Shown: piece by piece, positions 1,731-60,000 of the stretch | Position numbering within the stretch: position 1 is the first letter of the stretch | Layout: every line of letters starts with the position of its first letter | Assembly: GCA_964410945.1 (NCBI GenBank) | Contig: CAYPJE010000004.1 | Location: forward strand, 24,240-88,239 | Source: an uncultured bacterium | GTDB taxonomy: Bacteria > Fidelibacterota > Marinisomatia > Marinisomatales > TCS56 | DNA length: 64,000 nt | Direction: 5' to 3' | Program-made: the position numbers and the translations under genes | The notes under the pieces: generated by a model | The model's input: only the letters and a program-made list of their open reading frames with translations | Told to the model about the DNA's origin: nothing | Databases searched by the model: none

Positions 1731-3041
1731 TTAAAACTCGATATTCAACGAAAAACGCATGGTATTTGACAGGGCATCGTACTCATCACCATAGATATAG
1801 CCAAAATCAAAACCATAGCCTGAGAAACGCAGTCCGAAACCCAAGGTCATATTGCTGATTTTGCCGGTCTTATCGTAATAATAACCGGCGCGCAGAGCAA
1901 AATTGTTGGAATACCAGTATTCCATACCGATATTGTGGACCAGTTTATCAACCTCGTCCATGATCGAACGATCATCACCGGTGCCGACTTCCTTCTCACC
2001 ATCTTTATTATATTTGCCATAATCATCATCGCCATATGAACCACCGGATGGGACCCAATTGTCATCACCCTGTTTAACATAGCCACCGATTACACCGTCG
2101 GAATCCAAATCGATATCGCCGCCAAGCAGCCAGTCATCCACCCAGGAGGTAAATACCCCCAGATAGATCGGATCGGTGTGGGCTGTTTCGCGCTGACCAT
2201 CTTTATTGTATTCAGCATTGGCGGTTGACGGATGACCATCTTCATCAAATTGTCCAACCAACCCATCTCCATCCCAGTCCATGTCCGGATAGGATGCCAC
2301 CAGCATTTTATCAATATCATAGACCAGGCTGAGACGATTATAGGGAGTATCAACCAGTTTGTAGTTAAAGCCCAGTGTGAAATTGGTCGGCTGGGGATCG
2401 GCCTGGGCGGCATCGATAAAGGCCACCTTTGGTCCGATATTTGTCACAGTCAAACCAAGATCCAGTTTATTTCTTAATAATCCTTTACGCATATATCCAA
2501 TATCGAAACCGAAATCAGTAGATGTACCCTTACCAATCTCACCACCGGCACCAACATCGGTCAAATGTTGATAGGATATTTTTGCATTGATACCTATCGA
2601 TGAATTTTGCGACAAAAGTGCGCTGTAACTCCCTGCAATCGCAAACATATAGGTGGTGAAGGTTCCCAGATCTTCAGCTAATTCGCCGGTGCGCTGCTGT
2701 TCTCCGAGATTCAGGAAGATAAGGTGACCGCCAAGTGTACCCAGGTTTTCGACATGATCCCGATAAGCGAAAAATTCATAGTACAAATCATCGGCCAGAT
2801 TAGGCAGCCAGTTGACATGCATAACCGCCAATTCCGATCCCTTCAGGAAACCCAGTCCGGCCGGATTCCAGTAACTGGCATAGGCATCATTGGCGACTGC
2901 TACCTGGGCCTCACCCATACCGCCGGCACGAGCTCCGGGTGATATTAATAGAAATATGGCTCCTGCCTCACTCTGTGCCTGCAGGATTCCAAAGGTCGAC
3001 ATCAGTACTGACAACGACAATACGAGCAATTTAATCTTCAA
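1731..3041 (-). CDS. PorV/PorQ-family outer-membrane beta-barrel protein with an Asp-rich insertion
   Basis: 436-aa ORF with a TTG start, preceded by GGAGG (3052-3048) at a 6-nt spacing. Signal peptide MKIKLLVLSLSVLMSTFGILQA. The motif FLLISPGARAGGMGEAQVAVANDAYASYWNPAGLG is typical of PorV/PorQ-type barrels. The sequence alternates beta-strand-like segments and ends in Phe. Confidence 0.75.
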   Translation of the reverse strand: MKIKLLVLSLSVLMSTFGILQAQSEAGAIFLLISPGARAGGMGEAQVAVANDAYASYWNPAGLGFLKGSELAVMHVNWLPNLADDLYYEFFAYRDHVENLGTLGGHLIFLNLGEQQRTGELAEDLGTFTTYMFAIAGSYSALLSQNSSIGINAKISYQHLTDVGAGGEIGKGTSTDFGFDIGYMRKGLLRNKLDLGLTVTNIGPKVAFIDAAQADPQPTNFTLGFNYKLVDTPYNRLSLVYDIDKMLVASYPDMDWDGDGLVGQFDEDGHPSTANAEYNKDGQRETAHTDPIYLGVFTSWVDDWLLGGDIDLDSDGVIGGYVKQGDDNWVPSGGSYGDDDYGKYNKDGEKEVGTGDDRSIMDEVDKLVHNIGMEYWYSNNFALRAGYYYDKTGKISNMTLGFGLRFSGYGFDFGYIYGDEYDALSNTMRFSLNIEF

Positions 3042-3238: not shown

Positions 3239-5047
3239 TTAAAACAATAATCCAATCGACAAAAACGGCAGGTAGGTAATCAATAAAACGACAGCCAGTC
3301 GTATCAGGAAAAATGGCAGGGTTGCTTTATATATTACCGGCATCGGTTCCTCGAACCGATAGGCCGACAGAAATAGGTTCATCCCAACAGGCGGGGTTAG
3401 AAAACCCAGCTCCAGGTTGGCAATAAAAATGATTCCCAGATGCACCGGATCGATTCCAAAATGAATACCTAACGGTGCGATCAAAGGAACGACCACGATA
3501 ATGGCTGAAAAAATATCCATTAAACAGCCAACGGCCAGCAAAAATACATTCAACAAGATCAGAAAGGCATACTTAGATGATATCATCGACTGAACCAGGT
3601 TAAGCAGGCGCATCGGTATTTGTGCATCCACCAGGTAGCTGGTCAATCCCATGGCGACACCAAGAATGATTAAAACGCCGCCAATCAGGGTCGCGCAATC
3701 AATAATAATTTTTGGAAGTTGCTTAACACTCAAGTCTTTATAAATAAATACTTCAACAATAAATACATATACCGTAGTAAAAGCCGCTGTTTCAACCAGG
3801 GTTGTAAAACCGCCAAAGATACCGGCCAGGATACCGATCGGAATAACCGCTTCCCATTTTGATTCCCATAGGACTTTCAAAGCTGTATTTGCATTAAATC
3901 CGGTTCGTTTAATATGATCGACGCGGCCCTGCCGTATTCCCCAAACTGCTATCGTTAATACCAGAATTAAACCCGGTATTAAACCGGCTATAAACATATT
4001 CTTTACTGAAACACCTGCCGTAACGCCATAGATTATCGCCGGTAAACTCGGTGGAAACAGTAATCCCAGTGATCCGGAAACTGTTACCAACCCGATTGCA
4101 AATACCCGGGAATACCCCTCACGAATCAGTAGTGGAACAAGCAATCCGCCCAGTGCCAGGATTGTTACTCCGGAACCACCTGTTAAAGTGGTGAAAAAAC
4201 CACAGAGAATTACGACTACCACCGGGGTTCCGCCAGGAATCCATCCGAACCAGGTCCTGAATAATTTCAACATGCGTCCCGAGGCACCGCCACCAGCCAG
4301 GATATATCCGGCCAGTGTGAACAGTGGTATCGTTGGTAATGTCGGTGAAACTACGATCCGGTAAGTTTCAGCTGGTATGGCCGATACCGGTACAAAGGAA
4401 TTCCAGAACAATAAAACCGCTGCTCCACCCAGTCCAATGAAGATGGGCATACCGAAAATGAAACCGGTCAGCAATAGTCCGATCCCCAGAACGATTGTGA
4501 TCGCACTGTCCTGCAGGAAACCAGTCATCCCCAGGACAAAGATGATAACCGTTGCTATCAATAACGTGGCGCGCTGGAGCCGGTCGGAATAACTGCTGTG
4601 GTAAATCTGGAGGGCGATCAATCCAAAACCCAGAGGCATGATGGATTGCGCCAGCCAGATCGGAATCCCCGGTGCAAGTTCCCGGGGATAGGCTAATTCA
4701 ACCTTAACCAGTTTCCAACTGCCCCACATCAAAGCCAGGACGATCATAAAGGATAATGTTTTTGCCAGCCAGCGTCCAGTGTGAATTTCATTTTCCTGTG
4801 TAAATAGCGGTTTTACAGTCAGTGACAGTAATTTATTCTGCCTGGTTGCCAGAACAGCTCCGATAAATCCAATCCATAGGGTCAGATGTTGCACGATCAT
4901 TGCGGAAGATGGGATTCCCGGACGGCCAAAAGCTCTGAGGACAGTCTCATTAACCGGTAAAAATGTGATTACAAAAAATACAATCAGAGCCAGGGTATCT
5001 TCCCCCCAGCGTACCCGATTAATAAAGTTGGTAGCCAGCTTATTCAA
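3239..5047 (-). CDS. TRAP transporter fused small/large permease (DctQ-DctM fusion)
   Basis: 602-aa polytopic membrane protein. An N-terminal DctQ-like four-helix part is followed by a DctM-like body. It lies directly downstream of a DctP-type binding-protein gene, with an 8-nt gap. Confidence 0.85.
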   Translation of the reverse strand: MNKLATNFINRVRWGEDTLALIVFFVITFLPVNETVLRAFGRPGIPSSAMIVQHLTLWIGFIGAVLATRQNKLLSLTVKPLFTQENEIHTGRWLAKTLSFMIVLALMWGSWKLVKVELAYPRELAPGIPIWLAQSIMPLGFGLIALQIYHSSYSDRLQRATLLIATVIIFVLGMTGFLQDSAITIVLGIGLLLTGFIFGMPIFIGLGGAAVLLFWNSFVPVSAIPAETYRIVVSPTLPTIPLFTLAGYILAGGGASGRMLKLFRTWFGWIPGGTPVVVVILCGFFTTLTGGSGVTILALGGLLVPLLIREGYSRVFAIGLVTVSGSLGLLFPPSLPAIIYGVTAGVSVKNMFIAGLIPGLILVLTIAVWGIRQGRVDHIKRTGFNANTALKVLWESKWEAVIPIGILAGIFGGFTTLVETAAFTTVYVFIVEVFIYKDLSVKQLPKIIIDCATLIGGVLIILGVAMGLTSYLVDAQIPMRLLNLVQSMISSKYAFLILLNVFLLAVGCLMDIFSAIIVVVPLIAPLGIHFGIDPVHLGIIFIANLELGFLTPPVGMNLFLSAYRFEEPMPVIYKATLPFFLIRLAVVLLITYLPFLSIGLLF

Positions 5048-5055
5048 AATATAAT

Positions 5056-6060
5056 TTATTCTGCTTCTGTTTCTTGGGCGCGGCGTTCTTCCATCAGCTG
5101 TACAACGCGATCAAATATTTCAGCGGGAATCAGGCTGCCCCTGATTTCAGGATAAAACGACCGGGTCAATTCCAACCAGGATTGATATTCTTCCGCAGTT
5201 GGATGATGGACCTTCAACCCGTATTCTTCCATCACTTCAATCGCCTTTTCATCCATATGGCGGTTTATTTCCTGCTGTTTCAATCCAATTTCCTTTGCGA
5301 TCACAAGCATTTGCTCACGATGCTCGGGACTGATCTTTTCCCAGGTCTTTTTATCTATTACCGTCCCACCGGTAACCAGCCCCCATTTCATCTCCAGCAT
5401 ATGGGGAGCCGGACCGAAAAACTGATTTGAAAGGGCCATAATAGCTGGTGTGGCCAACGCATCTATTAATCCGGTCTGTAAACCGGATAAGACATCGATA
5501 TAGGCCAGTTGCACTGACTCATAACCGGCGGTCTGCCAAAGTTTAGTACTTTGATAATCACCGGCCCAGGTAAAAATGCGCATTTTCTTCAAATCCTGGG
5601 GCAATATCAGCGGATCGCGAGCAAACCAGTAAGCCCAACCTACATCACCCCAATTTATTATTACAAAGCCATTGTCTTCAAATTCAGCCGCCAGACCAGG
5701 GGCAATGTGTTCCCGGATGTAATCGACATCATCGTAATCCTGGAAGATCATCGGAACCAGAAATCCGAATACATTACGGGAAATTTCCGAAAGCCCTTCC
5801 GTAGTTACTGCCGCACCGTGGATCTGTCCGATCCGGATTTTCCGAATCATGTCCCGTTCATCCCCTACTACGCCACTTGGATAAAGCCTTAACGCTACCT
5901 GCCCATCAGTAGCTTCCTTCCAGCGCTGGCCCATTTCAACCATCAGGCCATGCATATCCGATCCCTGGGGTGCCAACGTGGCCATTTTGATTATTACCGG
6001 CTTGGCCCAGGCCGATGTAAAAAGAAGTATTGCCAATAATGTTCTGGTATGCGATTTCAT
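5056..6060 (-). CDS. TRAP transporter substrate-binding protein (DctP family)
   Basis: 334 aa with a signal peptide (MKSHTRTLLAILLFTSAWA). Its size and periplasmic-binding-protein character fit the family, and it sits between a TatT-like gene and a DctQM gene. Confidence 0.85.
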   Translation of the reverse strand: MKSHTRTLLAILLFTSAWAKPVIIKMATLAPQGSDMHGLMVEMGQRWKEATDGQVALRLYPSGVVGDERDMIRKIRIGQIHGAAVTTEGLSEISRNVFGFLVPMIFQDYDDVDYIREHIAPGLAAEFEDNGFVIINWGDVGWAYWFARDPLILPQDLKKMRIFTWAGDYQSTKLWQTAGYESVQLAYIDVLSGLQTGLIDALATPAIMALSNQFFGPAPHMLEMKWGLVTGGTVIDKKTWEKISPEHREQMLVIAKEIGLKQQEINRHMDEKAIEVMEEYGLKVHHPTAEEYQSWLELTRSFYPEIRGSLIPAEIFDRVVQLMEERRAQETEAE

Positions 6061-6069
6061 AGTATCCTG

Positions 6070-6996
6070 TCAGTAAAAAAGTTCATCTTCACGGCTCAAC
6101 AGCCAACGGGCACGATCCTGGGCCAGTAAATTTGATAGACGATTTTCCGGTGCTGAATCAACATCAAAATCGATGGCAGTCTGCAAGAATTCAATGAATT
6201 CTTCCCGATTTTGATTACGGATTGAAAACGTCTCAGCCGCCGAGACATACAGGCTGCAATCCTTGCCAGCGCTGATTTCTATAGCCTTCTGAAAATATTT
6301 GCGGGCAATTTCCTCAGAATTAGCTTTCATATCCGGTCGACTCAATTCATAACTCATCATAGCGCTATAAATGGTACCATTTCCCCAATCGCTGTCCAAT
6401 TCCATAATTCGCTCGAACAGGTAGCCGACTTCAGGCAAATCTATCAGCAATTGCGGATTACCCTGACTGGCAATAATTGCACCGGCCTGGGCAGCCGCCA
6501 TCCAATACATTGCGTCAATCTGATCAACTTCCAACATCCCGACTGCTTGGACCGGGTCGAGTTTGAATGCTGCTCCAAAGCCATTCACCTGCGACTCCAG
6601 AGATCGCAGACCGTAGTTACGGCCCCTGAGCATCAATTTCTCGGCTCGTTTATAAAGCCGACGACTTGCCGCTATATCCTCAACTGCCATTCGATCAGCA
6701 TCTTCCATTATATAGGCATAGCCGTACATCGTAAAACCCGAAGCGGCAGCGGTCAGTAAATTAGAATTTTCCGGCGACTGCTGAATCAATAATTCAATGG
6801 CCTTTAAATTGAACGGGAAGGCTTCTCTGACCAACTCGGGATCGTCCTCAGTCAGATATAAATCACCGGCCGATCCAAATGAATTCCCAACTCGGTCAAT
6901 TATAAAAACAGTTGGCGAACAACCTGTAAGAACAATCAGAAAAATGAAAAATAAAAAAGGGCGGGCAATTATTCCGGGGTTAATCCGTCCAAGCAT
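6070..6996 (-). CDS. TatT-family TPR lipoprotein associated with the TRAP transporter (T-component of a TPAT system)
   Basis: The ORF track extends to 7095 and would then overlap glyA by 83 nt. The ATG at 6996 gives MLGRINPGIIARPFLFFIFLIVLTGC, which carries an LTGC lipobox. The body is helical and TPR-like. The gene order T-P-QM matches that described for Treponema TatT systems. Confidence 0.7.
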   Translation of the reverse strand: MLGRINPGIIARPFLFFIFLIVLTGCSPTVFIIDRVGNSFGSAGDLYLTEDDPELVREAFPFNLKAIELLIQQSPENSNLLTAAASGFTMYGYAYIMEDADRMAVEDIAASRRLYKRAEKLMLRGRNYGLRSLESQVNGFGAAFKLDPVQAVGMLEVDQIDAMYWMAAAQAGAIIASQGNPQLLIDLPEVGYLFERIMELDSDWGNGTIYSAMMSYELSRPDMKANSEEIARKYFQKAIEISAGKDCSLYVSAAETFSIRNQNREEFIEFLQTAIDFDVDSAPENRLSNLLAQDRARWLLSREDELFY

Positions 6997-7012
6997 CAAT
7001 AACCGGCTGCAA

Positions 7013-8326
7013 TCAATGAATTTCCCGGTAAAGCGGAAACGCATCACAGAGTGAATTGACATCTGATTTGGTTCGATCCAGGAAATCTTCATCATCGGGA
7101 TTACTGATTACCTGATCAATCAGGTCACAGATAACTTTGATTTCCGCTTCTTTCATCCCTCTGGTGGTAACTGCCGGTGTTCCGACCCGGATACCACTGG
7201 TAATAAAGGGACTTTTGGTATCAAATGGAACCATGTTCTTATTGACTGTTATCCCGGCTTTTTCCAAAGCGTTTTCAGCCTTTTTCCCGGAGATTCCCTT
7301 ATTCGTAAGGTCAATCAGCACCAAATGCGTATCAGTGCCTCCCGATATTAAATTATAATCCCGGTTCAGAAATTCTGTTGCCATAGTCTGTGCGTTAATG
7401 ATTACCTGTCTGGTATAGTCCTTGAATTCAGGCCTTAAAGCTTCACCGAAAGCAACTGCCTTGGCAGCTATCACATGCATTAAAGGTCCACCCTGGATTC
7501 CAGGCATAACCATTGAATCAATCAACTCGGAAACCATTTTTACCCGTCCGGACTTGGGAGCGACTTTACCCCAGACATTTTCCGTATCCTTGCCAAGCAG
7601 TATCATCCCCCCCCGGGGTCCGCGCAAGGTTTTGTGGGTAGTGGTGGTTACTACATCACAGTACTCCATTGGCGACGGATGAAGACCGGTAGCAACCAAT
7701 CCCGAAGGATGGGCTATATCGGCCATGAGAAAAGCTCCGCATTTATCGGCAACTTCCCGAAACTGCTCGAATTCGATAAACCGTGGGTAGGCGCTGCCAC
7801 CACAAATGATCAATTTGGGTTTATGTTCTCTGGCCAGTCGATTTACTTCGTCAAAATCAACCCGTCCGTTTTCTTTATCAACGTGATATGATATCACATT
7901 GAATAACCTTCCGGAGAAGTTGACCGGACTCCCATGGGTAAGATGTCCTCCATGGGATAGATCCAGCCCGAGGATCGTATCGCCTACTTCAAGGAATGTG
8001 AGTAAAGCGGCCATATTAGCCTGGGAACCGGAATGAGGCTGAACATTAGCATATTCAGCCCCAAATAATTCTTTGGCCCGGTCGCGGGCCAGATTTTCTG
8101 CTTCGTCCACATGCTGGCAACCACCGTAGTAGCGCTTGCCGGGGTAACCTTCCGCGTATTTATTGGTCATAACACCGCCCGCCATCTCCAATACCGGATA
8201 GCTGACAAAGTTCTCAGAAGCGATTAATTCCAGAGTGGAATCTTCACGGTTGATTTCTCGATCCAGAATTGCGTGCATTTCCGGATCGGAAGCCTTTAAA
8301 TGACTAAAAACGGAAGAAGTACTCAT
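7013..8326 (-). CDS. glyA: Serine hydroxymethyltransferase
   Basis: 437 aa. Motifs [16 protein letters not shown] and [14 protein letters not shown] (PLP lysine) are present. Confidence 0.97.
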
Positions 8327-8343
8327 TAATTTACCCTAACTAT

Positions 8344-9612
8344 TTACCAGGATGCATCTTTCGTGAGTTTTTCGCTAACCCATTCGTAGCAACCGTTTCC
8401 GGTTTCCACATAACCAATACTTTGCTGCTCGGGAGTCAACATGAACCACTGTTGTTTACGGAAGATGACATCTTTTTCATTCTCCTGCAACCAACGGCGA
8501 TTGCTGCTTTTCCTGGTAAAACCAAGTTTCTCAGCTTCCAGATAATTTCTCAATGCCAATGTTGCCACAATGCGATCCTCATCCCTGATACTGCTGGTAC
8601 GACAGGTATTGAAAGATTTATAGTACACATTCGCCTTCTGCGCAATAGCTGCCCCATCTTTTGGAGCAAGTGAGATAGCACGGTTTGCCCAGCGCATTGC
8701 TTTTTCAAAATCAAGAGCCAGCTCATTTATCTCAGAAATCTTAATTGCCAACTGTACGTCACGGGGATCAAGTTTGAACAGTTTCTCATAGGCCAGCGAC
8801 GATTCTTCCAGCTCATTTGCGGCAAACAGGGATTCTCCCTTCAAACGATACAGTGGCTTACTATTCGGATCCTCAATCAAACCATCTTCAATAAATTCGA
8901 CGGCATCAATCGCCCGGCCATTGTCAACCAGCCGGCGGGAAAGATCGATTATATATGAAATATTATCCGGGTTATCTTTTACTCGCTGAATATACCACTC
9001 CAATGGATCACCGCCAATCATCTCTGTAGCGATAGCAATTTCGCTGGTAGCTTCTTCGTTATTGGGGTCTATTTTCAGTAATTGTCTCAGGACGAAAATC
9101 TGATCTTTGTACAATTCCTGATCTTTGTATAAACCAGCTAATTCGGACATCGTCTCCGTATCGGTAGAATCAAGTCCGATCACTTTCTCATACTCATTGA
9201 TTTCCTGCTCAATTTTGCCCTGTTTCTTATAAGAATAAGCCAGACGTTTACGCAAGGGCAGATTATCAGGTAGTTTTTGCAGACCCTTAAGGAGAACATA
9301 TTCGGAGCTGTCGTAGTGGCTCATGAATTCATAAGCGATCGCATAATAAAGATATACTTCTTCCTCTTCTCCGCGGTCGCAACCCATCTCGACAATATCA
9401 TTATAAACGCGGACAGTCGATTTCCAGTCACGATTCTTATAGTACTCAGCTGCACTACTTAATAGACGGGGGCAACGAACCTGTCGTAGTGAATCCAAAC
9501 GTTTTTGCTCGGCCAGGGCAGCTGCATCGGCACCATCATCCGGCGGGACGCACATAGTAATAAATGCCAGTACCAAACTGAGTAAGGCGGTTTTTAAAAT
9601 AAACTGTTTCAT
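8344..9612 (-). CDS. Secreted or lipid-anchored TPR-repeat protein
   Basis: The ATG at 9612 gives MKQFILKTALLSLVLAFITMC, a signal peptide with Cys at the cleavage region. Multiple TPR-like repeats follow. The start lies 1 nt from the stop of the upstream barrel gene. Confidence 0.7.
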   Translation of the reverse strand: MKQFILKTALLSLVLAFITMCVPPDDGADAAALAEQKRLDSLRQVRCPRLLSSAAEYYKNRDWKSTVRVYNDIVEMGCDRGEEEEVYLYYAIAYEFMSHYDSSEYVLLKGLQKLPDNLPLRKRLAYSYKKQGKIEQEINEYEKVIGLDSTDTETMSELAGLYKDQELYKDQIFVLRQLLKIDPNNEEATSEIAIATEMIGGDPLEWYIQRVKDNPDNISYIIDLSRRLVDNGRAIDAVEFIEDGLIEDPNSKPLYRLKGESLFAANELEESSLAYEKLFKLDPRDVQLAIKISEINELALDFEKAMRWANRAISLAPKDGAAIAQKANVYYKSFNTCRTSSIRDEDRIVATLALRNYLEAEKLGFTRKSSNRRWLQENEKDVIFRKQQWFMLTPEQQSIGYVETGNGCYEWVSEKLTKDASW

Positions 9613-9613
9613 T

Positions 9614-10879
9614 TTATCGTTTTCTCCTTTTAACGAACCAGGTATCACCAATTGCTATTTGTATTTCTAATTTTTCCACTGTCTCTGTTTCATCTAAAAC
9701 CGGGCCTCGACGGCTCCCAATCGAGTATGCCAAATTAATAGAATTATTACTGAATCCAAATTTAAAACCGGCCCCCAGTGAAATTCCCGTTTCAATCAAT
9801 TTCTCATCAGCCGGTTTAATCTCCCAACCATCATAATAGACACCGGCGCGCAATTGGATTTTCTGCTTCAGGGCACGGGAAAGCGGTTTTGTAAATTTTA
9901 CAATTCCCAGGTTGAAATGACTGTAATTACCAAAATAATAATCATTAATCGGCTTAAGGAAATCCGGCAATTCACTGGAATTGAACTGAGCCAGGTATTC
10001 GGTGTTCAATTCAACCAGAGAAGCCAGCCGGTAACTGGCACCAATACTTAATTCAAAAGGATGATAGGTATCCTCATAAATTTCAGTTTCTTCCATCTTC
10101 GAACTGCTGATATACGGAAAATCATAGTAATCACTATAATAGCCGCTGCCATCCGAATCTTCATATAAATGGTATTGTACAGATCTGATTTTAAGTGGCT
10201 GTAAGGCAAGCCCCAAACTGAAGTATAAATTCAAAGGACGATTTTGGATCGTATAACGGTGTGAATTCAGGTAATAGTTAACATTCATACCAGTGTATGA
10301 ATCATGTCGGCTATAGTAATAGTTATCATCGTCCAGACTGATAATCGAACTATGCCGTGACGAACCAAACATTACCTCCAGCTGCAGCGCCTGGTGCTCA
10401 TATTCTGTTAGTGGAAAACCAACCGCCGTTTCAATCGAGCTGATTCCCCCGGCACCTTCGATGGAATATTGTGCCGATAATGTATCTTCAAAAAACACAT
10501 AGTCGGCAACGCTGGTCAATAAATTGTAATTATTATTTGTAATTGGCCTGATATTAATTCCCCAGGAATATTTGCCTGCAATGGGAAGGATCAATTGAAG
10601 CGGGCCAATGTCAGCGTAGGAATTGGAACCTGATCCCACATCTACCATTTGACTGGAAAAATTACCACCGAGGATAGCATATCTGCTGTTGTGCCAGGTA
10701 GACGGATTGCTAACGGAAAGTTGCCGGTCAAATGCAGGTACTAAGCCCAACGAACCGGTTCCGGATGACGCCGCATCGCTATAACCGGAATATAACCCAA
10801 GCCCAATCGAATTGTGAATACTTTGCCCGAAGACCAGAGTGCTGACAACTGATATCAGTAATAGTTTACGGAAGTACAT
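9614..10879 (-). CDS. Predicted outer-membrane beta-barrel protein of unknown function
   Basis: 421 aa with signal peptide MYFRKLLLISVVSTLVFGQS. It is rich in Gly, Ser, Tyr and Asn with alternating beta-strand pattern. The C-terminal segment is LEIQIAIGDTWFVKRRKR. It overlaps the upstream lipoprotein gene by 14 nt. Confidence 0.6.
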   Translation of the reverse strand: MYFRKLLLISVVSTLVFGQSIHNSIGLGLYSGYSDAASSGTGSLGLVPAFDRQLSVSNPSTWHNSRYAILGGNFSSQMVDVGSGSNSYADIGPLQLILPIAGKYSWGINIRPITNNNYNLLTSVADYVFFEDTLSAQYSIEGAGGISSIETAVGFPLTEYEHQALQLEVMFGSSRHSSIISLDDDNYYYSRHDSYTGMNVNYYLNSHRYTIQNRPLNLYFSLGLALQPLKIRSVQYHLYEDSDGSGYYSDYYDFPYISSSKMEETEIYEDTYHPFELSIGASYRLASLVELNTEYLAQFNSSELPDFLKPINDYYFGNYSHFNLGIVKFTKPLSRALKQKIQLRAGVYYDGWEIKPADEKLIETGISLGAGFKFGFSNNSINLAYSIGSRRGPVLDETETVEKLEIQIAIGDTWFVKRRKR

Positions 10880-12122
10880 ATATCACCTCCAGACGTGGGC
10901 GTTTTTCTGTAACAGGAGATTTTTCGGAGTGAAAATGATAGGTTTTGAAGGGATTATTACTTGTAGTACTGAACAGTTTCATTCCATAATTACCGGCCTG
11001 TTCCAACACGACGGCCTGCATCATGATTCTGGTTTCCAACTCCACTGTACCGTCAGCTTCAAAATTATCAGGCAGTTCCAATTGAGCTGTGTAAGGATCT
11101 TCTTCACTGCTGAAGTAATGGTAATCACTGTACTCGGTCGTATCGATTGAGTAAATGCCTACGGTGAATCCGGAATCTGCCTCACTGGCTGTATCTTTCC
11201 ACAACACCAGATTGGCAGATTTGATCAATGCCTCCGGAGCAAGGAAAGTACTGTCATAGTCCAGCATCAGAACCGACCTGACGCCTAAGGCGGTCCCTAG
11301 GCTGATTGTTGTCGTATCCACATCTGTAATAGCCGGGGGAATAACCACACTCAGGTCACTTCCGACATAAAATGTATAATCCAATGTATCTATATCGCTT
11401 TCTTCGGAAGCCTGGTATTGAAAAGTTATATCCATATATGGTTGGTAGGAGGATTCCTCGGAGCTGCGAAAAGCCTGCCGACCTTCGGTGGGATTATCAC
11501 GCCAAACGATGAATGTTCGATTGGTTACACCATCGGTTGTTTTTGCAAAATCGGCCAAAATTGTATCCGCTTCAGAGGTCAAGTCGAATTTTAAATAGGG
11601 ATAATATGAGGCCGTATCGCTGGTAAGCCTGGTGGTCGCAATCGGGAATCCCATCCGGCTCTTTATGTAAGCCGTATCCAGGTTTAAATAATTACTTGCC
11701 GATTCATCGAAGACAGAATCCATTTCAGCCACAGGTATATTGGTGATATGATAATCATATAATTGGTCCGGCAGTACCGTATCACGATATGTCAAATACA
11801 GAAACAGACTGTCTATCCCCAGAACTAACGAAGTATCCAGCGATAAAACTGAAATTTCATATCCTGAGGAGTAAAAGCCCATATTCAATAATGTATACGG
11901 GCATTGAAAAGTCGAATCCGTACCAAAATACAAGCTGTTGATTGCTCCCATGGCAGGTGGTATTCGATAAGTGAATGAGTTGATATCTAAAAGCAGGGTG
12001 TCCCCCACCAAGAATTCGATATCAGATATTAAATCGGAAGTTATTGGGTCGTCCATGCAACTAGTAAACAGCAGCAGAAATGACATTAATAGGACAAGTC
12101 CAATCATTTTGGATAAGGCCAT
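10866..12122 (-). CDS. Lipoprotein of unknown function
   Basis: 418 aa. The N-terminus MALSKMIGLVLLMSFLLLFTSCMDD has an FTSC lipobox. It is acidic and Ser/Thr/Tyr-rich. It might belong to the DUF4270 lipoprotein family, which I recall next to short GlgA-like genes in Bacteroidota. That recollection is unverified. Confidence 0.6.
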   Translation of the reverse strand: MALSKMIGLVLLMSFLLLFTSCMDDPITSDLISDIEFLVGDTLLLDINSFTYRIPPAMGAINSLYFGTDSTFQCPYTLLNMGFYSSGYEISVLSLDTSLVLGIDSLFLYLTYRDTVLPDQLYDYHITNIPVAEMDSVFDESASNYLNLDTAYIKSRMGFPIATTRLTSDTASYYPYLKFDLTSEADTILADFAKTTDGVTNRTFIVWRDNPTEGRQAFRSSEESSYQPYMDITFQYQASEESDIDTLDYTFYVGSDLSVVIPPAITDVDTTTISLGTALGVRSVLMLDYDSTFLAPEALIKSANLVLWKDTASEADSGFTVGIYSIDTTEYSDYHYFSSEEDPYTAQLELPDNFEADGTVELETRIMMQAVVLEQAGNYGMKLFSTTSNNPFKTYHFHSEKSPVTEKRPRLEVIYVLP

Positions 12123-19326: not shown

Positions 19327-19857
19327 TCAGGCCTTGTTAAGCCCCTCCTTGCTTAATTTATCAGCTACGGTATTTTTCTCGCGCCGTACGTGATTGATTT
19401 CCCATGAGCTGAACTTCTCCAATAGCATCTTGACCTTTTTGTGAAGTGGAATCATGCGCTCATTTTTCACTCTATAGACACCATTGATCTGACGAACTAC
19501 CAGTTCGCTGTCCATAAAAATGCTGATTTGGTTAATTTTTCTATTTATTGCCAGGTCCAAACCATAAATCAAGGACTGGTATTCGGCCTGGTTGTTAGTG
19601 GCGTCTGGTAAATATTCAGCAAAACTGAAAACTTCATCTTCTCCACAATACGCAATACCACCGATACCAGCCTTCTTTTTATTCAAATCAGCAGCACCAT
19701 CGACAAATAAACGAATGGAGTCCGAATCATCGATCCTGGATCTCAATTGATTCAGAATGTCCAATTCACGTTTATTCAAATCCAAAGGTATCTTATTGAT
19801 TATCCCTTTATCCAGTATTCTTGATAATAATTCCATTTCCCGGGAATCCAACTTCAT
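19327..19857 (-). CDS. RNase H (type 1, RVT_3-like) with a roughly 50-aa N-terminal helical extension
   Basis: 176 aa. DEDD-type residues appear in FVDGAA, NNQAEYQSL, MDSELV and EKNTVADKLSKEG. Confidence 0.8.
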   Translation of the reverse strand: MKLDSREMELLSRILDKGIINKIPLDLNKRELDILNQLRSRIDDSDSIRLFVDGAADLNKKKAGIGGIAYCGEDEVFSFAEYLPDATNNQAEYQSLIYGLDLAINRKINQISIFMDSELVVRQINGVYRVKNERMIPLHKKVKMLLEKFSSWEINHVRREKNTVADKLSKEGLNKA

Positions 19858-19874: not shown

Positions 19875-20915
19875 TTAATCAATTAATTGAGAAATTTTAC
19901 TGCAGATAAAATCGCCGACCTCAGAAGTGCCCATACTGCCCCCCAAGTCCCTGGTAGACCAACCTGCTTCCAGGGCTAGCCCTATCGATTCATCGAGCAC
20001 AGCGGCCAGCTTGTCCTGTTTCAGATGCTGCAGAATGGCAACCAGAGACCGAAAGGTGCCCAAGGGATTGGCAGCATCTTTTCCGGTGAACCGTTCCGAC
20101 GGTGGATGGAGCACATGAAACAGCCGTTGTCCTTCCGGACTGCGGTAGGACTCATATGCCAGACCGAGCCCGCCTTCCATGGCAGCAGCTAACTTAGAGA
20201 TCAGTTGGCCAAACGGTGGCACGGTGAGTATCAGATCAAGATCATCAGGTTTATGGAGTAATTTGAACAAGAGAAAATCAATACTCAAATATACCGGCAT
20301 AATATCATGATCATTGAGAAGATCATTAATCCTTCGCAACCAGGGATTATCCTTATTCAGTTGTGAATCAAGCAGCGCAACCGTCAATCGGCTATGTATT
20401 TTATTATCGATCTGTGATTTGATATATTCAACAATTGGATCAATCGATATAGAGGTTGAGATATCAAGATTCAGAAATGCACTTTCATTATCTGACAGTC
20501 TTGTTGCCAAATATGGTGAAACAGTAAAGGAATTGCTCACATCCTGTAAAACCCGGATATTATATACATCATCATTCAGTAGACCGCCCGAGGGATTAAA
20601 TGATAAAACAGCACGGTCCAGTATTGTCAAATTAAGTCGTTCGATGAATGACTTGAATATCCCGTTCTTCAATTTGGTACCGTCAGCGGCCTTTTCAGCC
20701 AGCGGGCCGATCCAGATTGCATCAGAATTACGGCACTCATCGATCACGGTACTGGAAACCGGAAATCCAGTCTCCTGATAATAGGCTTTACCCAGATCAA
20801 ACTCATGCAGGTTAAACTTGATTCTGGTATATGACTCCAGTGCAGAAAATATTTTATGAATTTCCCGTGCGATCTCTGGCCCGACACCATCACCCGGGAT
20901 AATCGCCAGCTTCAC
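19875..20915 (-). CDS. Isocitrate/isopropylmalate dehydrogenase-family homolog, probably non-catalytic
   Basis: 346 aa with a GTG start that overlaps the upstream stop (GTGA). The N-terminus MKLAIIPGDGVGPEI is typical of the family. The canonical G-D-I-L-S-D block reads PFGQLISK, so both Asp residues are lost. HGSAPD reads HPPSER. Confidence 0.75.
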   Translation of the reverse strand: MKLAIIPGDGVGPEIAREIHKIFSALESYTRIKFNLHEFDLGKAYYQETGFPVSSTVIDECRNSDAIWIGPLAEKAADGTKLKNGIFKSFIERLNLTILDRAVLSFNPSGGLLNDDVYNIRVLQDVSNSFTVSPYLATRLSDNESAFLNLDISTSISIDPIVEYIKSQIDNKIHSRLTVALLDSQLNKDNPWLRRINDLLNDHDIMPVYLSIDFLLFKLLHKPDDLDLILTVPPFGQLISKLAAAMEGGLGLAYESYRSPEGQRLFHVLHPPSERFTGKDAANPLGTFRSLVAILQHLKQDKLAAVLDESIGLALEAGWSTRDLGGSMGTSEVGDFICSKISQLID

Positions 20916-22174
20916 CAGATCGTTTCTCCAAAATACGGCGTTGCCAAACGATAATCTCCAAAACCGGTGGCGTCAATAAATGTAAATGATCTGTTAACGG
21001 AATAATAATGCCAAATCTGTCCGGCCGCATTGGAGATTGAGGAATATGCGCGCTCTATATCATCGGGAGCCCCGAATAGAATATAGATCATTCCCATATC
21101 CGATCGCCAGCCTGGTAGAAATGTCGAAAACTGTTTGTTTGCAAACCGAACCCGGTGGTAGTATTCTTCCATCAGTTCATTCTTAACGGTGTGCGGAGTT
21201 GGATCATGTTTATCCCAGAATTCCTTGAATAATATCTCCTTCTCACTGACGTTTGCCCGTTTAAATCTCTTAATATCGTCTTCGTCCAGAATATATCTCA
21301 GTTGATCAACGGCCAGCTCGATATCGCTGATTGTGGCCGGTATACCAGGATGCGTAATTGACAGTCGCAATGTCTCGCTAAATGTTTCCTTATCCTGGTG
21401 AAGGCTAACAATAAAATGTACATTCAAATCCCTGAGTATTTCCTGGGGGATGTGCATTATTGTTGAGAACAGGCTTGATTCATCAAGGTTGTTGTATTCC
21501 AGATTATTATCCAGAAGAACACTGTCCGAGTTATTTATAGCCACTACGGTAATGCTGAAGGGTTTGGTTTCAATTTTTCCGCTTGCCAGCAAGTAGTAAT
21601 TATCGTTCTCCTCGGGAATCCTAAAATTCATTACCGGAATCATATCATCACCAATCCCCCAATTGCCCGGCTTCTTTTTCAACAGGATAATCGGAAAAAG
21701 GAAGACACCATCCAGATATGGTGTCATATCCAGCTCAATCTCTTCCCGGCTGGCATTGTGGGTATCCCGATCCAGGACCTCAGCCGATACTATCAATTCC
21801 TCGGTTGGCAATACCAGGTTAGCATACAGGGTTGTAAACAACGTTGTCGAGACTGTCTCACGGTAATCGACTATATCAACTGAACGGGTCCATAATTGAC
21901 GGCCTTTTTGAAACCCATCTTTATTTTTTATAGAAACAGTCGCTTCAAATCGCGCCTGAAACCCTGAATCATTTTTAACAAATTGCAGCGAGGAATTAGG
22001 AATTTCCAGATAGATCACTGTTTTAACCGAATCAACGGCAATTGCCTCAATCGGCATGGCAGTCAAATGGAACGGGTTACGATTTTCTTCTTCATTCCGC
22101 CCGAAGTTCCCCCCGTCCTGAGCCATAAGAAATTGCATGGCAATAATTGTATAGATAACTGTTTTTACTTTCAT
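20912..22174 (-). CDS. GWxTD domain-containing secreted protein
   Basis: The ATG at 22174 forms an ATGA overlap with the upstream stop and gives MKVKTVIYTIIAMQFLMAQ, a signal peptide. The C-terminal motif is FLPGWRSDMGMIYILFGAPDDIE. Confidence 0.8.
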   Translation of the reverse strand: MKVKTVIYTIIAMQFLMAQDGGNFGRNEEENRNPFHLTAMPIEAIAVDSVKTVIYLEIPNSSLQFVKNDSGFQARFEATVSIKNKDGFQKGRQLWTRSVDIVDYRETVSTTLFTTLYANLVLPTEELIVSAEVLDRDTHNASREEIELDMTPYLDGVFLFPIILLKKKPGNWGIGDDMIPVMNFRIPEENDNYYLLASGKIETKPFSITVVAINNSDSVLLDNNLEYNNLDESSLFSTIMHIPQEILRDLNVHFIVSLHQDKETFSETLRLSITHPGIPATISDIELAVDQLRYILDEDDIKRFKRANVSEKEILFKEFWDKHDPTPHTVKNELMEEYYHRVRFANKQFSTFLPGWRSDMGMIYILFGAPDDIERAYSSISNAAGQIWHYYSVNRSFTFIDATGFGDYRLATPYFGETIW

Positions 22175-23823
22175 TGATCTATCCGCCAAATGAATTTTAT
22201 TAATCCTTCCGTGGTTCCAATCCAAATCTCGTCACCGGAAATATACACATCATTCATATTACCCATGAAATTATAATCATATTCCCTGTACGAACCGGTT
22301 TCAGTGCTGATGCGGAACAACCCGTCATTCACTGCCAGCCATAGATAGTTGTCATCTCTATCCATTGATCGTATATATTTTCCTTTGTAAATCACCGGAC
22401 TCAAGATTTTTGACCATTGGCCGGATGTTTTGTTAAAGGAAAGAATTCCGGTAGATGTTCCAACCAGCAGAGAATCACCATTGATGGTCAGGGAGGTAAA
22501 TCCGCTGAAAGTATCAAATTCCGGTTGAAATGATTCGTTCCGATAGTACTGTTTATATTCCATCAGCCGATTGTCATCAAACTCCAGTATTCGCAGGTTT
22601 TGAACCGAGGCAATCCAGAGACTATTTCCATAAACCGCCAGATCAGAGATGTATTGTTCGCTATAAACGGACTCTAATCCGGTCAACAATTTTTGATAAC
22701 TGCCGACTGCCAAACATCCGATCCCCCGGGAGGATCCAATCCAAACCCTGGATTTACTGTGTACCAGTACATTTATCCGGCCAGGTGGAACACCGTTGGC
22801 TTCATTCAGAGTCCGCCATGAGTCAAGATTTTTATTGTAAACCAGAATCTGTCCGTTTCCACCAAACCACAATTCATCACCGATAGACATTGCAGAATAC
22901 AATGGCTGAGGGGCCATATTGATAATATTTCTGGAATAAAAATTATCATATACATTACGCTTAATATCGATTCTGCTAACGCCAGCCTCGTTTTGGGTAC
23001 CGGGTCGGCCGCTCACCCATAATCCATGGTAGGGTAAGATAAACTGGATATCAGCCGTCACCAGACCGATTGGAATATTCTCGAAGGTATTCATCTGGGG
23101 ACTGCTTTTAAATACTGTTCCCCGGTCAGTCCCAATCCAACTGTCACCCAGTCTGGTTCTGTAAAATGTGGTTATACCGTGATATTCACCTTTTGGATCC
23201 AACAAACCGCGGTCAAACAGATCCCACCCCCCAAACAGGCTATAATCGCTGAGAATATCAACAGGATCGATGTAGGTGGGTATAAAACCACCACTCCAGT
23301 CAATTGTATCCGAGTCGGGGTTGATCATTTGGCCGATCATAATCCCGGAATTTCGATCGCATTTGATAACCAGAGTTCTGGTCCGGCACCAAAGATAACT
23401 TTCATCTGAACCAATCTGAATGATCCGGTCTGACCGGCCCAGGCCAAGATCATCGAAACCAATCTTCTGCCAGCCACCTTCCCGGTCAAAGCTATAACAC
23501 AAGAATCTTGGCGTTGCCACCCAGATAATTCCGGTATTGCTGTCAACATGAACGGCCGTGGTTCTATTAGCCGGTAATCCCTGGGCCGTGCTCAGTGGTT
23601 CCTCAAACTGAAAGGCATAATTATTATAACGCCAGACACCACCGGATTCAGTGGCGATATAGGTAAACAACGTACCTTCAGTGATAGCATTGATTTGACC
23701 TGTTGGTCGATATAGGACCCAATCAAAAGGATGATGATGGGGAGCAGGCTGGCAATAAACCATCGCGCATAAAATGGTTACCAGTCTAATCAGGTATTTA
23801 AGTACTGTGAGTCCTTTAAGCAT
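22171..23823 (-). CDS. Secreted beta-propeller protein (two-component-regulator-propeller-like repeats)
   Basis: 550 aa with a signal peptide. Repeats of the type (L/I)W(I/V)G(T/S)xxG recur: SWIGTDRGTVF, LWFGGNGQILVY, VWIGSSRGIGC, LWLAVNDGLFRI and IWIGTTEGLIKF. Confidence 0.7.
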   Translation of the reverse strand: MLKGLTVLKYLIRLVTILCAMVYCQPAPHHHPFDWVLYRPTGQINAITEGTLFTYIATESGGVWRYNNYAFQFEEPLSTAQGLPANRTTAVHVDSNTGIIWVATPRFLCYSFDREGGWQKIGFDDLGLGRSDRIIQIGSDESYLWCRTRTLVIKCDRNSGIMIGQMINPDSDTIDWSGGFIPTYIDPVDILSDYSLFGGWDLFDRGLLDPKGEYHGITTFYRTRLGDSWIGTDRGTVFKSSPQMNTFENIPIGLVTADIQFILPYHGLWVSGRPGTQNEAGVSRIDIKRNVYDNFYSRNIINMAPQPLYSAMSIGDELWFGGNGQILVYNKNLDSWRTLNEANGVPPGRINVLVHSKSRVWIGSSRGIGCLAVGSYQKLLTGLESVYSEQYISDLAVYGNSLWIASVQNLRILEFDDNRLMEYKQYYRNESFQPEFDTFSGFTSLTINGDSLLVGTSTGILSFNKTSGQWSKILSPVIYKGKYIRSMDRDDNYLWLAVNDGLFRISTETGSYREYDYNFMGNMNDVYISGDEIWIGTTEGLIKFIWRIDQ

Positions 23824-56966: not shown

Positions 56967-57046
56967 TTAGGAACAGAAAGGGTTGTTAGAGTAATAAAAT
57001 TCAACTCAGGTATTTCATATTTACCCTGCAGATTCTAAAATTGAAC

Positions 57047-60000
57047 ATGCTAAAATATGATTCCACATCGAAGCCCAAGTTCAGATTTCAGGACCTCATG
57101 CTGCACCGGGTTTATGAAATCCTGCTCGTGGCCAGCCCATATGATGCTTATATCCTGGAAGAAGACGGCCAGTTAGCTGAACAGATCATAAACGAATACC
57201 TGGGGATGAATTTTACCGCCGCGCCCCGGCTATGGGTATCACCCACCGCCAGCGATGCGCTGGAATTTTTAACCAAACGCAAATTTGACCTGATCATTGT
57301 CATGTCGCGCATTTCGGACATGGATCCCATTACATTCAGTAAAAAAATCAAAGAACTATATCCCAAGAAACCAATCATTCTACTGGCAGCCGATGAGTCC
57401 GAATTAAATCAACTGCCGGCTTTCGACCTTCAATCCAGTAAACCGATCAACAAGGTCTTTATCTGGACCGGAAACGCCAACCTGTTCCCAACCATTATCA
57501 AATATTACGAAGACCGGAAAAATGTCAAGCGCGATGTTAAGCTGGGTGAAGTACGTATTATCATCGTAATTGAGGATACTCCACGCGATTATTCGGTCAT
57601 TCTGCCACTGATCTATAAAACCATTGTCGAATATACCAATCAGCTGATGTCTAAAAGCCTGAATGCAGGGCAGAGATTGCTGCATTTACGGGGCCGGCCA
57701 AAGATCATTCTCACCAGCAATTATGAAGAGGCTCAGAGGTACTACCGCAAATATAGATCAAACGTACTGGGAATTATCTCCGACATCAATTTCCCTAAGG
57801 ACGGGAAAAAGGATCCTCTGGCGGGAGTTAAATTCGCCAAATGGGTGCGTAAACAGGAATCGACAATGCCCATCATGCTACAATCCAGGAATCAGGATGT
57901 TCATGAACTGGCCGAGGAAATCAATGCACATTTCCTGTATAAAAAATCCACCCGCCTGCTGCGGGACATCCAGGAATTCGTGATTACAAATTTTGGGTTT
58001 GGCAATTTCATTTTCCGTTCGCCTGACGGAACACCTATTGCGATGGCAGCTAACCTGGATGAATTGATGCAAATCCTGGGCACCATCAACGATGAATCTT
58101 TCGCCTACCATTCCAGTTATAATCATTTTTCCAACTGGCTGTCGGCTCGCGGCGAATTCCTGGCTGCGTCAAAAATCCGACCTCTCAAGCAGGAAGACTT
58201 CGATACAATCGAAGAACACCGAAATGAAATCATCCGCTTTATTGAAGAAAGTCAGGTCAAACATCTTGACGAAGAACTGGTAGATTTTTCAGTTGATTCA
58301 TTCAATGCTTCAATCAATTTCACACGCTTCGCATCCGGATCGCTGGGTGGTAAGGCCCGGGGGCTGACCTTTGCTGGACAATTATTAGTTGATTCTGGGA
58401 TTCGTGGGAAATACCCGGAAATAACGATCCGAGTTCCCCAGGTGGCAATCATTGGAACCGATGAATTCGACCGCTTCATGAATGACAACCAGCTATGGGG
58501 ACCGGTTCTATCGGTTACCGATAATCAAGAAATAAACAGACTTTTTCTCGAAGCCCGGTTTTCAAATGAACTGATCAATCCGCTAAAAATCTATCTTTCT
58601 AAAATAAACTATCCCGTTGCAGTTCGTTCCTCAAGCCTGCTTGAGGACTCCCAGTACCAGCCTCTGGCAGGTCTGTACACCACTTATATGTACCCTAATA
58701 ATAATGAGTCACTGGACATTCGCGTGGCTGAATTATGCATTCTGATCAAACTTGTCTATGCGTCGATGTTCCATAAAGAACCCCGGGCTATCCTTACCAA
58801 CAGTACCCGTCGCCTGGAAGAAGAAAAAATGGCGGTAGTGATACAGGAATTAATCGGTCAGAAACATGCTGATTATTTCTATCCGACTTTCAGCGGGGTT
58901 TGCCAGAATTATAATTATTATCCGGTTTCCTATATGAAACGTGAAGAGGGTGCCGCCTTTCTCGCACTTGGCTTGGGGCGAACGGTAGTCGAAGGGGAAA
59001 AAGCTCTCCGGTTTTCGCCAAAATACCCGGCAATCCTACCTCAGTTTTATTCGGTCAGGGCAACGATTGCCTCCTCGCAGAATTCCTTCTATGCCCTGAA
59101 ATTAATCGAAAAACAGTATAAATCGGATTATTCCGAATTGATCGACCTGGAGAAGCTTCCCCTGTCGGTTGCTGAACAGGACGGTGTCCTGAAACATGTT
59201 GCCAGCGTGGTCTGTTCACAGGATTCGGTAATTCGCGATTCTTTGAGTTATGACGGAACCCGGGTAGTTACTTTTGCACCTATTCTCAAATGGCGGAAAA
59301 TTCAATTGGCTGAAATTCTGAATGAGATTCTGGATATTGGTCGCCATGCTTTGGGTGGCCCGGTCGAGATTGAGTTTGCCGTAAATATCTTCCCGGGCAC
59401 GAGCCGCAAACCGGAATTCTGCCTGCTGCAGATCCGCCCCATGCATTCATCCAATCTGAACACTGATATCGATCTGATCACAGCCGAATCCGAAGATATT
59501 GTTGCCCGCAGCCACATTACACTCGGGGATGGTACCATTGACAATATTTACAATATTGTTTTCATTGATAAGGATAGTTTTAATCCAGCCAAAAGCGAAG
59601 ATATCGCCCGTGAAATCGATACTTTCAACCAACGGCTGGGAAATCAAAGACCCTATATATTGATCGGTCCGGGACGCTGGGGATCGGCTGATCCATGGTT
59701 AGGTGTTCCGGTCCGCTGGGACCAGATCAGCAATGCTAAAGTGATAGTTGAGGTAGGGTTAGATAAGTATAATATTGATCCATCTTTCGGTAGTCATTTT
59801 TTCCAGATTGTAACAGGAATGAAAATCGCTTACTTCACGATCAACCCCAAAAATAAGGAAGACTCAATCAACTGGGATTGGCTTGCAGATAAAGAGCCTG
59901 TCGACAGTACCGAATTCATCCGTTGGATTCAGCTGGATCAACCAATTACCGTGCATGTTGACGGCATATCCGGAAAGGGCGTAATTAAAAAACCGGATGA

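Follow-up and report, generated by a model that had tools for sequence, protein, structure and literature searches.

A probable pseudoenzyme of the isopropylmalate dehydrogenase family encoded behind GWxTD and propeller genes in Marinimicrobia

What is a dehydrogenase-family protein kept for once the residues that define the chemistry of its family are gone? The question is raised by a gene of the Iso_dh family at 19875–20915 on the minus strand of a 64,000-nucleotide stretch of DNA (the window; contig CAYPJE010000004.1 of assembly GCA_964410945.1) from an uncultured bacterium of the Fidelibacterota. The gene starts with GTG and encodes 346 amino acids (aa), and its product is called here the Iso_dh-like protein; coordinates are those of the window unless another locus is named. 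An earlier, sequence-only reading of this DNA had described the gene on its own, and it has now been found that it belongs to a whole family of orthologues in Marinimicrobia/Fidelibacterota and stands third in a module, behind a beta-propeller gene and a GWxTD-domain gene. The explanation that we consider likely is a catalytically dead paralogue from the LeuB/tartrate dehydrogenase branch, maintained by selection, that is, a true pseudoenzyme tied through this module to two exported proteins.

Family membership and the active site

The Iso_dh-like protein matches Pfam Iso_dh (PF00180) with 110.7 bits (E=1.2e-31, cutoff 27), has the length of an isopropylmalate dehydrogenase (IPMDH) and carries the GDGxG loop, which bears out the beta-decarboxylating dehydrogenase family to which the sequence-only reading had assigned it. 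The loop, here GDGVG (20880–20894, minus strand), is the N-terminal glycine loop of the coenzyme domain and is invariant in canonical enzymes and in the two degenerate clades described below. In a phmmer search against PDB chains, the best solved relatives were IPMDHs (1VLC, E=8e-24), and identity to canonical enzymes is 20–27%. All NCBIfam equivalog scores fall three to five times under their curated cutoffs: the LeuB models NF002898, which gave the best NCBIfam score, and TIGR00169 reached 110.4 bits against 393 and 85 bits against 353.2; the tartrate dehydrogenase/decarboxylase model TIGR02089, whose catalytic set is also absent, reached 103.5 against 470.4; and the isocitrate dehydrogenase (ICDH) models NF006673 and TIGR00175 reached 76.8 against 509 and 69.3 against 432. 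Several databases label members of the family as '3-isopropylmalate dehydrogenase', 'isocitrate/isopropylmalate family dehydrogenase' or K00052, and an identity of 20–27% makes alignments fragile in principle; both points would suit a fast-evolving, functional LeuB or ICDH with misaligned residues, or else a decaying pseudogene. We give this alternative hardly any weight, and the distance from every equivalog cutoff is one argument against it.

Thermus thermophilus IPMDH, whose sequence is identical to PDB 1HEX_A over 345 residues, served as the numbering reference, and residues were mapped through pairwise phmmer alignments to PDB chains and four MAFFT alignments, all of which were concordant. 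Of the catalytic pair of LeuB, Lys185 and Tyr139, neither is present: K185 corresponds to L182 and Y139, the catalytic Tyr, to T131, while N187 is replaced by S184. Among the metal ligands Asp217', Asp241 and Asp245, only D217 is retained, as D213 (the Asp of 'SID' at 20277–20279), whereas D241 has become Q237 and D245 has become K241; among the substrate-carboxylate residues Arg94, Arg104 and Arg132, only R104 is retained (R101), R94 being I91 in all alignments and R132 being Q124. E270 is also lost, and N286-P287 is retained. On the minus strand, the segment with Q124 and T131 lies at 20523–20546, LLDS in place of D-K-A-N at 20364–20375, and PPFGQLISK, the degenerate form of the N-x-F-G-D-I-L-S-D metal block, at 20193–20219; the altered coenzyme loop HPPSERF, canonically H-G-S-A-P-[DK]-[IY], lies at 20088–20108 and differs from the H-G-S-A-P-D-I of Thermus by G274→P, A276→S and D278→R, with H273 retained.

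These columns agree with the sequence-only reading, which had seen both Asp of the block VPPFGQLISK replaced by Gln and Lys, the Lys-bearing D-K-A-N block changed to LLDSQLNK, and H-G-S-A-P-D altered to HPPSER. Its further suggestion that the first metal Asp is kept holds for the 346-aa protein itself and does not extend to the clade as a whole, of which only about two-thirds keep D217. It had also named Asp or Lys residues conserved at shifted positions as what would overturn it; no shifted Asp or Lys that could rescue the motifs was found in the pairwise phmmer and MAFFT alignments, and displaced catalytic residues were rejected, all alignments giving the same columns. Misalignment is further opposed by the agreement of five independent alignments and by the anchoring of the columns by F-G before D241, by H273, by N286-P287 and by W195.

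How unusual the substitutions are can be judged from relatives classed as canonical, which have R104, R132, Y139, K185, D217, D241 and D245. All candidate relatives in two alignments (93 and 173 sequences) had this set, so that the seven residues are 100% conserved there, and R94 is conserved in 92% of the canonical relatives of the 93-sequence alignment; by this comparison, the substitutions in the Iso_dh-like protein are far beyond chance. In Arabidopsis IPMDH2, one subunit reportedly contributes Asp288 and Asp292 to metal binding and the other contributes Asp264, and the catalytic (general-base) water is activated by Lys232 (PMC8468904). The Iso_dh-like protein has Leu aligned to this Lys232, at the position where the K232M mutant entry 5J34 has Met. 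Since neither member of the Tyr/Lys pair is retained, and only one each of the three metal Asp and the three substrate Arg, the Iso_dh-like protein, judged by its residues, cannot perform the chemistry of its family.

Orthologues, selection and the retained fold

A search of 5.8 billion proteins returned an identical protein (P0001) on 9–10 public contigs, relatives graded from 60% to about 27% identity and, after a drop in score, the canonical enzymes. The named relatives are assigned to Candidatus Marinimicrobia, Neomarinimicrobiota or Fidelibacterota, which are one phylum, formerly Marine Group A or SAR406 (PMC11652737). R94, R132, K185 (the alignment being ambiguous in two), N187, D241 and D245 are missing from all 26 aligned relatives, whereas the canonical sequences of the same alignment keep every one of them, except R94 in P0105; of the Marinimicrobia-clade sequences, 9% still have K185 and 11% still have Y139. 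A GTDB scan with one genome per species returned 29 loci, in which degenerate and canonical genes separate without exception, the syntenic ones being degenerate and the non-syntenic ones having the full residue set. When a profile of the clade was run against 1.84 billion cluster representatives (50% identity), about 8 scored above 300 bits, and the next matches include many other Iso_dh proteins with degenerate sites. Among the ten best-ranked of 171 papers in a literature search, none paired 'pseudoenzyme' with IDH or IPMDH, and nothing informative was found on Marinimicrobia leucine or ICDH genes.

The orthologous open reading frames (ORFs) of the 29 GTDB loci are intact, with 344–357 aa and no internal stops, L031 being cut by the end of its contig, and about 45 distinct orthologues are full-length. 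The ratio of nonsynonymous to synonymous substitution rates (dN/dS), obtained by the Nei–Gojobori method for pairs with unsaturated synonymous sites, was 0.093 for L013–L030 (dS 0.34), 0.042 for L020–L021 (dS 0.80) and 0.29 for L025–L028 (dS 0.23). Because this range of 0.04–0.29 is comparable with that found in those genome pairs for the heptose-7-phosphate kinase (rfaE), GWxTD and RNase HI genes, the Iso_dh-like gene is, on these substitution rates, kept by purifying selection and is no decaying pseudogene; the search for purifying selection that the sequence-only reading had recommended has thus come out positive. With intact ORFs, low dN/dS and concordant residue alignments, a pseudogene or an alignment artefact is effectively refuted.

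One orthologous locus is out of place by name: L026 (PAWD01000046.1), labelled Thaumarchaeota archaeon SAT137, has the full Marinimicrobia synteny of rfaE, propeller, GWxTD, Iso_dh-like and RNase HI genes, and the Iso_dh-like protein that it encodes is all but identical to the one of the Marinimicrobia metagenome-assembled genome (MAG) L025. The contig has almost certainly been mis-binned into an archaeal MAG.

The fold can be examined apart from the chemistry. An AlphaFold2 (AF2) model of the Iso_dh-like protein, built from the 26-sequence alignment, has a mean predicted local distance difference test (pLDDT) score of 84.8 and a predicted template modelling (pTM) score of 0.85, with low confidence only at residues 108–112, 275–281 and 321–324. 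Foldseek against PDB gave template modelling (TM) scores of 0.78–0.88 to IPMDH, tartrate dehydrogenase, homoisocitrate dehydrogenase and IDH3 (3flk, 1w0d and 5j33 among them), with 0.88 for tartrate dehydrogenase 3FLK and 0.84 for M. tuberculosis LeuB, so the two-domain IPMDH/ICDH fold is present in the model. A kept fold with lost chemistry, as the sequence-only reading had put it, is therefore what model and residues together indicate. The likeness is closest to the LeuB/tartrate dehydrogenase subfamily marked by 'TRDLGG...T-E-VGD': besides the two-domain fold (TM 0.84–0.88, 3FLK and 1W0D) and the length, it includes the GDGxG loop, W195, N286-P287 and the C-terminal T-R-D-L-G-G...T-x-E-x-G-D, and the difference lies in the absence of R94, R132, Y139, K185, N187, D241, D245 and E270.

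Loss of one chemistry could also mean gain of another, and a neofunctionalised enzyme that employs new residues for another, metal-independent reaction, perhaps on an envelope precursor, a sugar or a sugar-phosphate connected with the neighbouring envelope genes, was weighed against the pattern of conservation. The strong purifying selection is compatible with such an enzyme, as are the residues invariant in the clade (P71, S240, P271, S273, W319, S327-M328-G329 and C338) and the position of the Marinimicrobia module beside rfaE and other envelope genes. When 44 distinct degenerate sequences were compared with 93 canonical ones, however, 33 positions with a conservation of 85% or more in the canonical set were altered here, and nearly all of them proved variable within the clade (top-residue frequency 0.23–0.6); the exceptions are G274→P (0.95), A276→S (0.98) and K185→P (0.77). 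Because the old active-site positions vary in this way and are not fixed to a new set, the change looks, from these frequencies, like relaxation rather than a new catalytic set. The clade invariants, moreover, are mostly Gly, Pro, Trp, Ser and Met, which are typical of structure or binding. A new enzyme is, in our judgement, a fairly unlikely explanation.

Conservation is distributed unevenly over the protein. In the coenzyme domain (Thermus 1–99 and 252–345), the ratios of clade to canonical conservation are 0.93 and 0.96, while in the part with the substrate site, metal site and dimer interface (Thermus 100–251) the ratio is 0.74, that is, relaxed. The most conserved stretch of the family, WSTRDLGGSMGTSEVGDFIC (19902–19961, minus strand), lies near the C-terminus in the coenzyme domain. 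Conservation of the segment W319-S-T-R-D-L-G-G-S-M-G-T-x-E-x-G-D-x-I-C338 exceeds that in real enzymes, and block 321–330 has a mean top-residue frequency of 0.96 in the degenerate family, compared with 0.68 for canonical ones. Almost no variation is seen at P271 and S273 within the Marinimicrobia clade. In the E. coli ICDH sequence, we take T390-Y391-D392-F393-E394-R395 to correspond to T321-R322-D323-L324-G325-G326, and K344-Y345 to R275-F276; the match to Sulfolobus ST2166 (2DHT) has equal offsets and agrees with this mapping. It has been reported that K344, Y345, Y391 and R395 of E. coli IDH bind the 2'-phosphate of NADP (PMC6313988). In real enzymes the corresponding surface encloses the adenosine end of the coenzyme, and this would accordingly be the best-preserved surface of the Iso_dh-like protein.

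The structural matches include the IDH3 subunits (8grd, 5gre and 6kdf, TM ~0.78–0.84), which recalls yeast Idh1 and human IDH3 beta/gamma: these belong to the same family and are likewise catalytically deficient paralogues under selection. The regulatory subunits Idh1/IDH3 bind effectors (citrate, ADP/AMP) through a remnant of the active site and coenzyme cleft. A role as regulatory, non-catalytic subunit, joined in a hetero-oligomer to a canonical LeuB or ICDH encoded elsewhere, would fit the fold, the catalytic impairment and the selection seen here. However, most substrate-binding residues are still present in the Idh1/IDH3 subunits, which function only when assembled with a catalytic paralogue into hetero-oligomers, whereas the substrate site of the Iso_dh-like protein is almost erased. 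A regulatory effector site is expected to need Arg residues of the substrate type, and this Arg cluster is broken, R94 and R132 being lost in the Marinimicrobia clade and R104 in the second clade. The dimer interface belongs to domain 2, where conservation is relaxed. It has also been reported that subunits of the IPMDH family complete each other's active sites across the dimer, the partner supplying K185' and D217' (PMC8468904); since the Iso_dh-like protein lacks K185, a heterodimer would cripple its catalytic partner, and it is on this ground that the heterodimer was rejected as the main explanation. We regard such a subunit as improbable, and the gene neighbourhood described next adds to the case against it.

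The three-gene module and a second clade

Upstream of the Iso_dh-like gene, on the same strand, lie the two other genes of the module. The first, at 22171–23823 (minus strand), encodes a 550-aa propeller protein with a signal-like N-terminus and beta-propeller repeats; its matches to Reg_prop, PorZ_N_b_propeller and WD40_2 are all below threshold, and its orthologue at L042 passes Pfam with Reg_prop at 42.5 (cutoff 20.4) and PorZ_N_b_propeller at 33.3 (cutoff 27). The second, at 20912–22174 (minus strand), encodes 420 aa from an ATG at 22174 and matches TIGR04514 with 116 bits (cutoff 28) as well as PF20094; in the AF2 model of its product (pLDDT 84.7), a signal-type helix at the N-terminus is followed by two Ig/FN3-like beta-sandwiches and, at the C-terminus, the alpha/beta GWxTD domain, and Foldseek with this model found only generic beta-sandwich tandems (TM ~0.2) and no functional lead. 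The reading frames overlap at both junctions, which were checked in the sequence: ATGA at 22171–22174 joins the propeller stop to the GWxTD start, and GTGA at 20912–20915 joins the TGA stop of the GWxTD gene to the GTG start of the Iso_dh-like gene, with GGAG 10 nt upstream of this GTG. The gene calls at L001 for propeller and GWxTD (7093–8745 and 8742–10004) give a similar picture. From this arrangement, the Iso_dh-like gene is probably co-translated with the genes for two exported proteins.

The window has the GWxTD gene directly upstream within 60 nt and the propeller gene before it, and the same arrangement recurs across the family. Among 36 distinct degenerate loci, 33 have at least 1.5 kb of upstream sequence, and a GWxTD gene stands directly upstream of the degenerate Iso_dh in 32 of these 33 (gap −7 to +60 nt); a propeller gene (~550 aa, PorZ/Reg_prop-like) is also present in 30. 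An overlap of −4 is the commonest GWxTD/Iso_dh-like junction (13/32 loci), and overlaps of 1–7 nt occur in 23/32. A metagenome scan with the alignment of the second clade used a generic N-terminal pattern, and 79 of the 80 loci that it returned were canonical and served as a synteny negative control; of the 57 canonical Iso_dh loci with usable flank, 51 from the metagenome scan and 6 from GTDB, none had a GWxTD or propeller neighbour. In contrast to canonical LeuB genes, the Iso_dh-like gene lies outside any leu operon and behind GWxTD and propeller genes. No second Iso_dh gene was found in the window by tblastn with eight family members as queries, no leuA, leuC, leuD or tricarboxylic acid cycle gene was seen among the window ORFs scanned, and there is no Iso_dh partner gene in any of the ~40 module loci. 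In contrast to Idh1/IDH3, then, the Iso_dh-like protein has no linked catalytic partner, and its conserved genomic partners are two exported non-enzymes; the family would also be of separate bacterial origin, from a LeuB-like ancestor.

In Marinimicrobia loci with enough flank, the order is rfaE kinase, propeller, GWxTD, Iso_dh-like, sometimes a PD-(D/E)XK gene, and then RNase HI, followed where the flank suffices by mreBCD-PBP2-rodA, sometimes with inserted genes; this continuation is not seen in P0027-type loci. The PD-(D/E)XK (Cas4-like) gene stands between the Iso_dh-like and RNase HI genes in several Marinimicrobia (L004:11109–11897; L010:11083–11874). In the window, the RNase HI gene just downstream (19327–19857, minus strand) has an N-terminal extension of ~45 aa.

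The upstream genes of the module belong to the GWxTD (TIGR04514/PF20094) and PorZ/Reg_prop families of type IX secretion bacteria. PorZ consists of two propellers and a C-terminal secretion domain, whereas the propeller protein of the module has 550 aa. A PorV-like outer-membrane protein (PF19572, 91.6 bits) is encoded at 1731–3041 (minus strand) of the window; the organism accordingly has type IX secretion components, which fits the PorZ-like propeller of the module. A literature search covering 8 million papers found no publication on GWxTD, TIGR04514 or PF20094, and to our knowledge no link of the GWxTD or PorZ/Reg_prop families to a dehydrogenase homologue has been described.

The degenerate proteins fall into two clades. 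Clade A is the Marinimicrobia core and includes the window gene; R104 and H273 are retained in it, R94 and D241 are not. The more distant clade B retains R94 and usually D241 and is without R104, with H273 replaced by Q. Neither clade has kept Y139, N187, D245 or E270, and K185 is lost from both apart from ~30% of clade B. The only non-canonical residues conserved in both are P71, G286 and G329; the clades have lost different residues and share no new polar constellation, which argues against a new enzyme. In favour of such an enzyme, which is conceivable above all for clade B, some clade-B members keep the metal Asp triad together with K185: P0297 and P0298 retain R94, R132, K185, D217, D241 and D245 and are without Y139, R104 and H273.

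The module is present in clade B at the loci of P0133 (L041), P0284 (L042), P0126 (L043), P0272 (L044), P0297 (L125) and P0318 (L127). These are the six that were examined among the lower-scoring degenerate proteins, and each lies directly behind GWxTD and propeller genes. L126, L128 and, from the metagenome scan, L045 have the same propeller–GWxTD–Iso_dh arrangement, and the Iso_dh-like gene lies at about 8001–9100 in most loci of this clade. The flanks differ: the clade-A module lies within rfaE...RNaseH-mreBCD, whereas the clade-B module has HtpG-Obg-DprA upstream, or iPGM in L043, and mutually unrelated genes downstream. Because the gene order survives while the flanks change, the evidence for a functional linkage of the module genes is strong. 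One leucyl-tRNA synthetase that neighbours a clade-B module is named Marinimicrobia/Neomarinimicrobiota at NCBI.

A further degenerate Iso_dh lineage was met at L040:8001–9071 (GCA_005223185.1), which encodes P0140; the gene is preceded by an aminotransferase gene and has no GWxTD or propeller neighbour. P0137, P0142, P0170 and P0176 are 38–48% identical to P0140 and belong to the same lineage, which may represent a pseudoenzyme of separate origin or an enzyme put to a new use.

The closest canonical relative of the degenerate proteins is P0028, 27–53% identical to all of those compared; enzymes of this type are named LeuB in Ignavibacteria, Bacteroidota and KSB1 MAGs. The simplest history would be that a P0028-type LeuB-like gene was duplicated and that one copy was recruited behind a GWxTD gene. 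Because both clades are without Y139, K185, D245, E270 and N187, dehydrogenase chemistry was presumably lost before they split. The catalytic Tyr and part of the metal site may have gone early and the remaining substrate and metal site may then have eroded differently in each lineage, while domain 1 would have stayed under selection in the GDGxG loop, G-P at 70–71, N-P at 283–284 and the T-x-D-x-G-G-x-x-G-T-x-E segment, which lies beside the adenosine ribose of NAD(P) in real enzymes.

Possible role and significance

If the Iso_dh-like protein is a pseudoenzyme, as we think likely, its role is probably new and non-enzymatic. The conservation pattern suggests a cytoplasmic, non-catalytic binding protein that uses the old surface of the coenzyme domain. 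It is hypothesized that translational coupling links its synthesis to that of the two envelope proteins, that the old coenzyme cleft may receive a ligand, most plausibly an adenine nucleotide or dinucleotide or a partner protein, and that it might thereby have a regulatory, sensing or assembly role for the function of the propeller and GWxTD proteins in the cell envelope. A more specific and distinctly tentative version is that the three genes form one unrecognised envelope system of Marinimicrobia and their relatives, in which the dehydrogenase relic would act, by way of its preserved coenzyme domain, as a cytoplasmic sensor of a nucleotide or metabolite or as an assembly factor and would couple the metabolic state to the production or the function of the exported pair.

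Several observations weigh against this explanation. The proposed ligand site is itself altered, by G274→P and A276→S in clade A, by H273→Q in clade B and by the loss of E270 in both, and residues 275–281 and 321–324, where AF2 confidence is low, fall within it; because the H-G-S-A-P loop is altered, E270 is lost and model confidence is low there, NAD(P) itself is doubtful as the ligand. The Iso_dh-like protein has no signal peptide, whereas both module partners look exported, so a direct physical partnership is not obvious and the adjacency could reflect co-regulation only. L040 (candidate division LCP-89), alone among the 33 degenerate loci, lies outside the module. With the metal Asp triad and K185 in place in P0297 and P0298 of clade B, a residual or altered chemistry is conceivable for the family as a whole.

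Other genes of the window were noted in passing. At 57041–60052 (plus strand), a 1003-aa protein combines an N-terminal response-regulator receiver with PPDK_N (pyruvate phosphate dikinase, AMP/ATP-binding), an unusual fusion. Two adjacent ORFs of 421 and 418 aa at 9614–12122 (minus strand), without a Pfam match, lie downstream of a Glyco_transf_5 gene, and the pair also occurs in the distant Marinimicrobia loci L001 and L004. A TRAP-T type transporter operon at 3239–7095 (minus strand) encodes a TAtT component, a DctP-family binding protein and a fused DctQ-DctM membrane protein.

SAR406/Marinimicrobia is an abundant ocean phylum, and the K00052 and leuB labels could lead metabolic reconstructions of it to credit leucine synthesis wrongly to a dead protein. 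Pseudoenzymes under selection are well studied in eukaryotes and, as far as we know, few are documented in bacteria; the present family offers a tractable model, with clear ancestry, graded decay of the active site in two clades and conserved operon partners. Its linkage to the propeller and GWxTD genes also gives a testable context for the uncharacterised GWxTD domain family. If the envelope-system explanation is true, it would provide a bacterial pseudoenzyme with a signalling or scaffolding role and a first functional handle on GWxTD.

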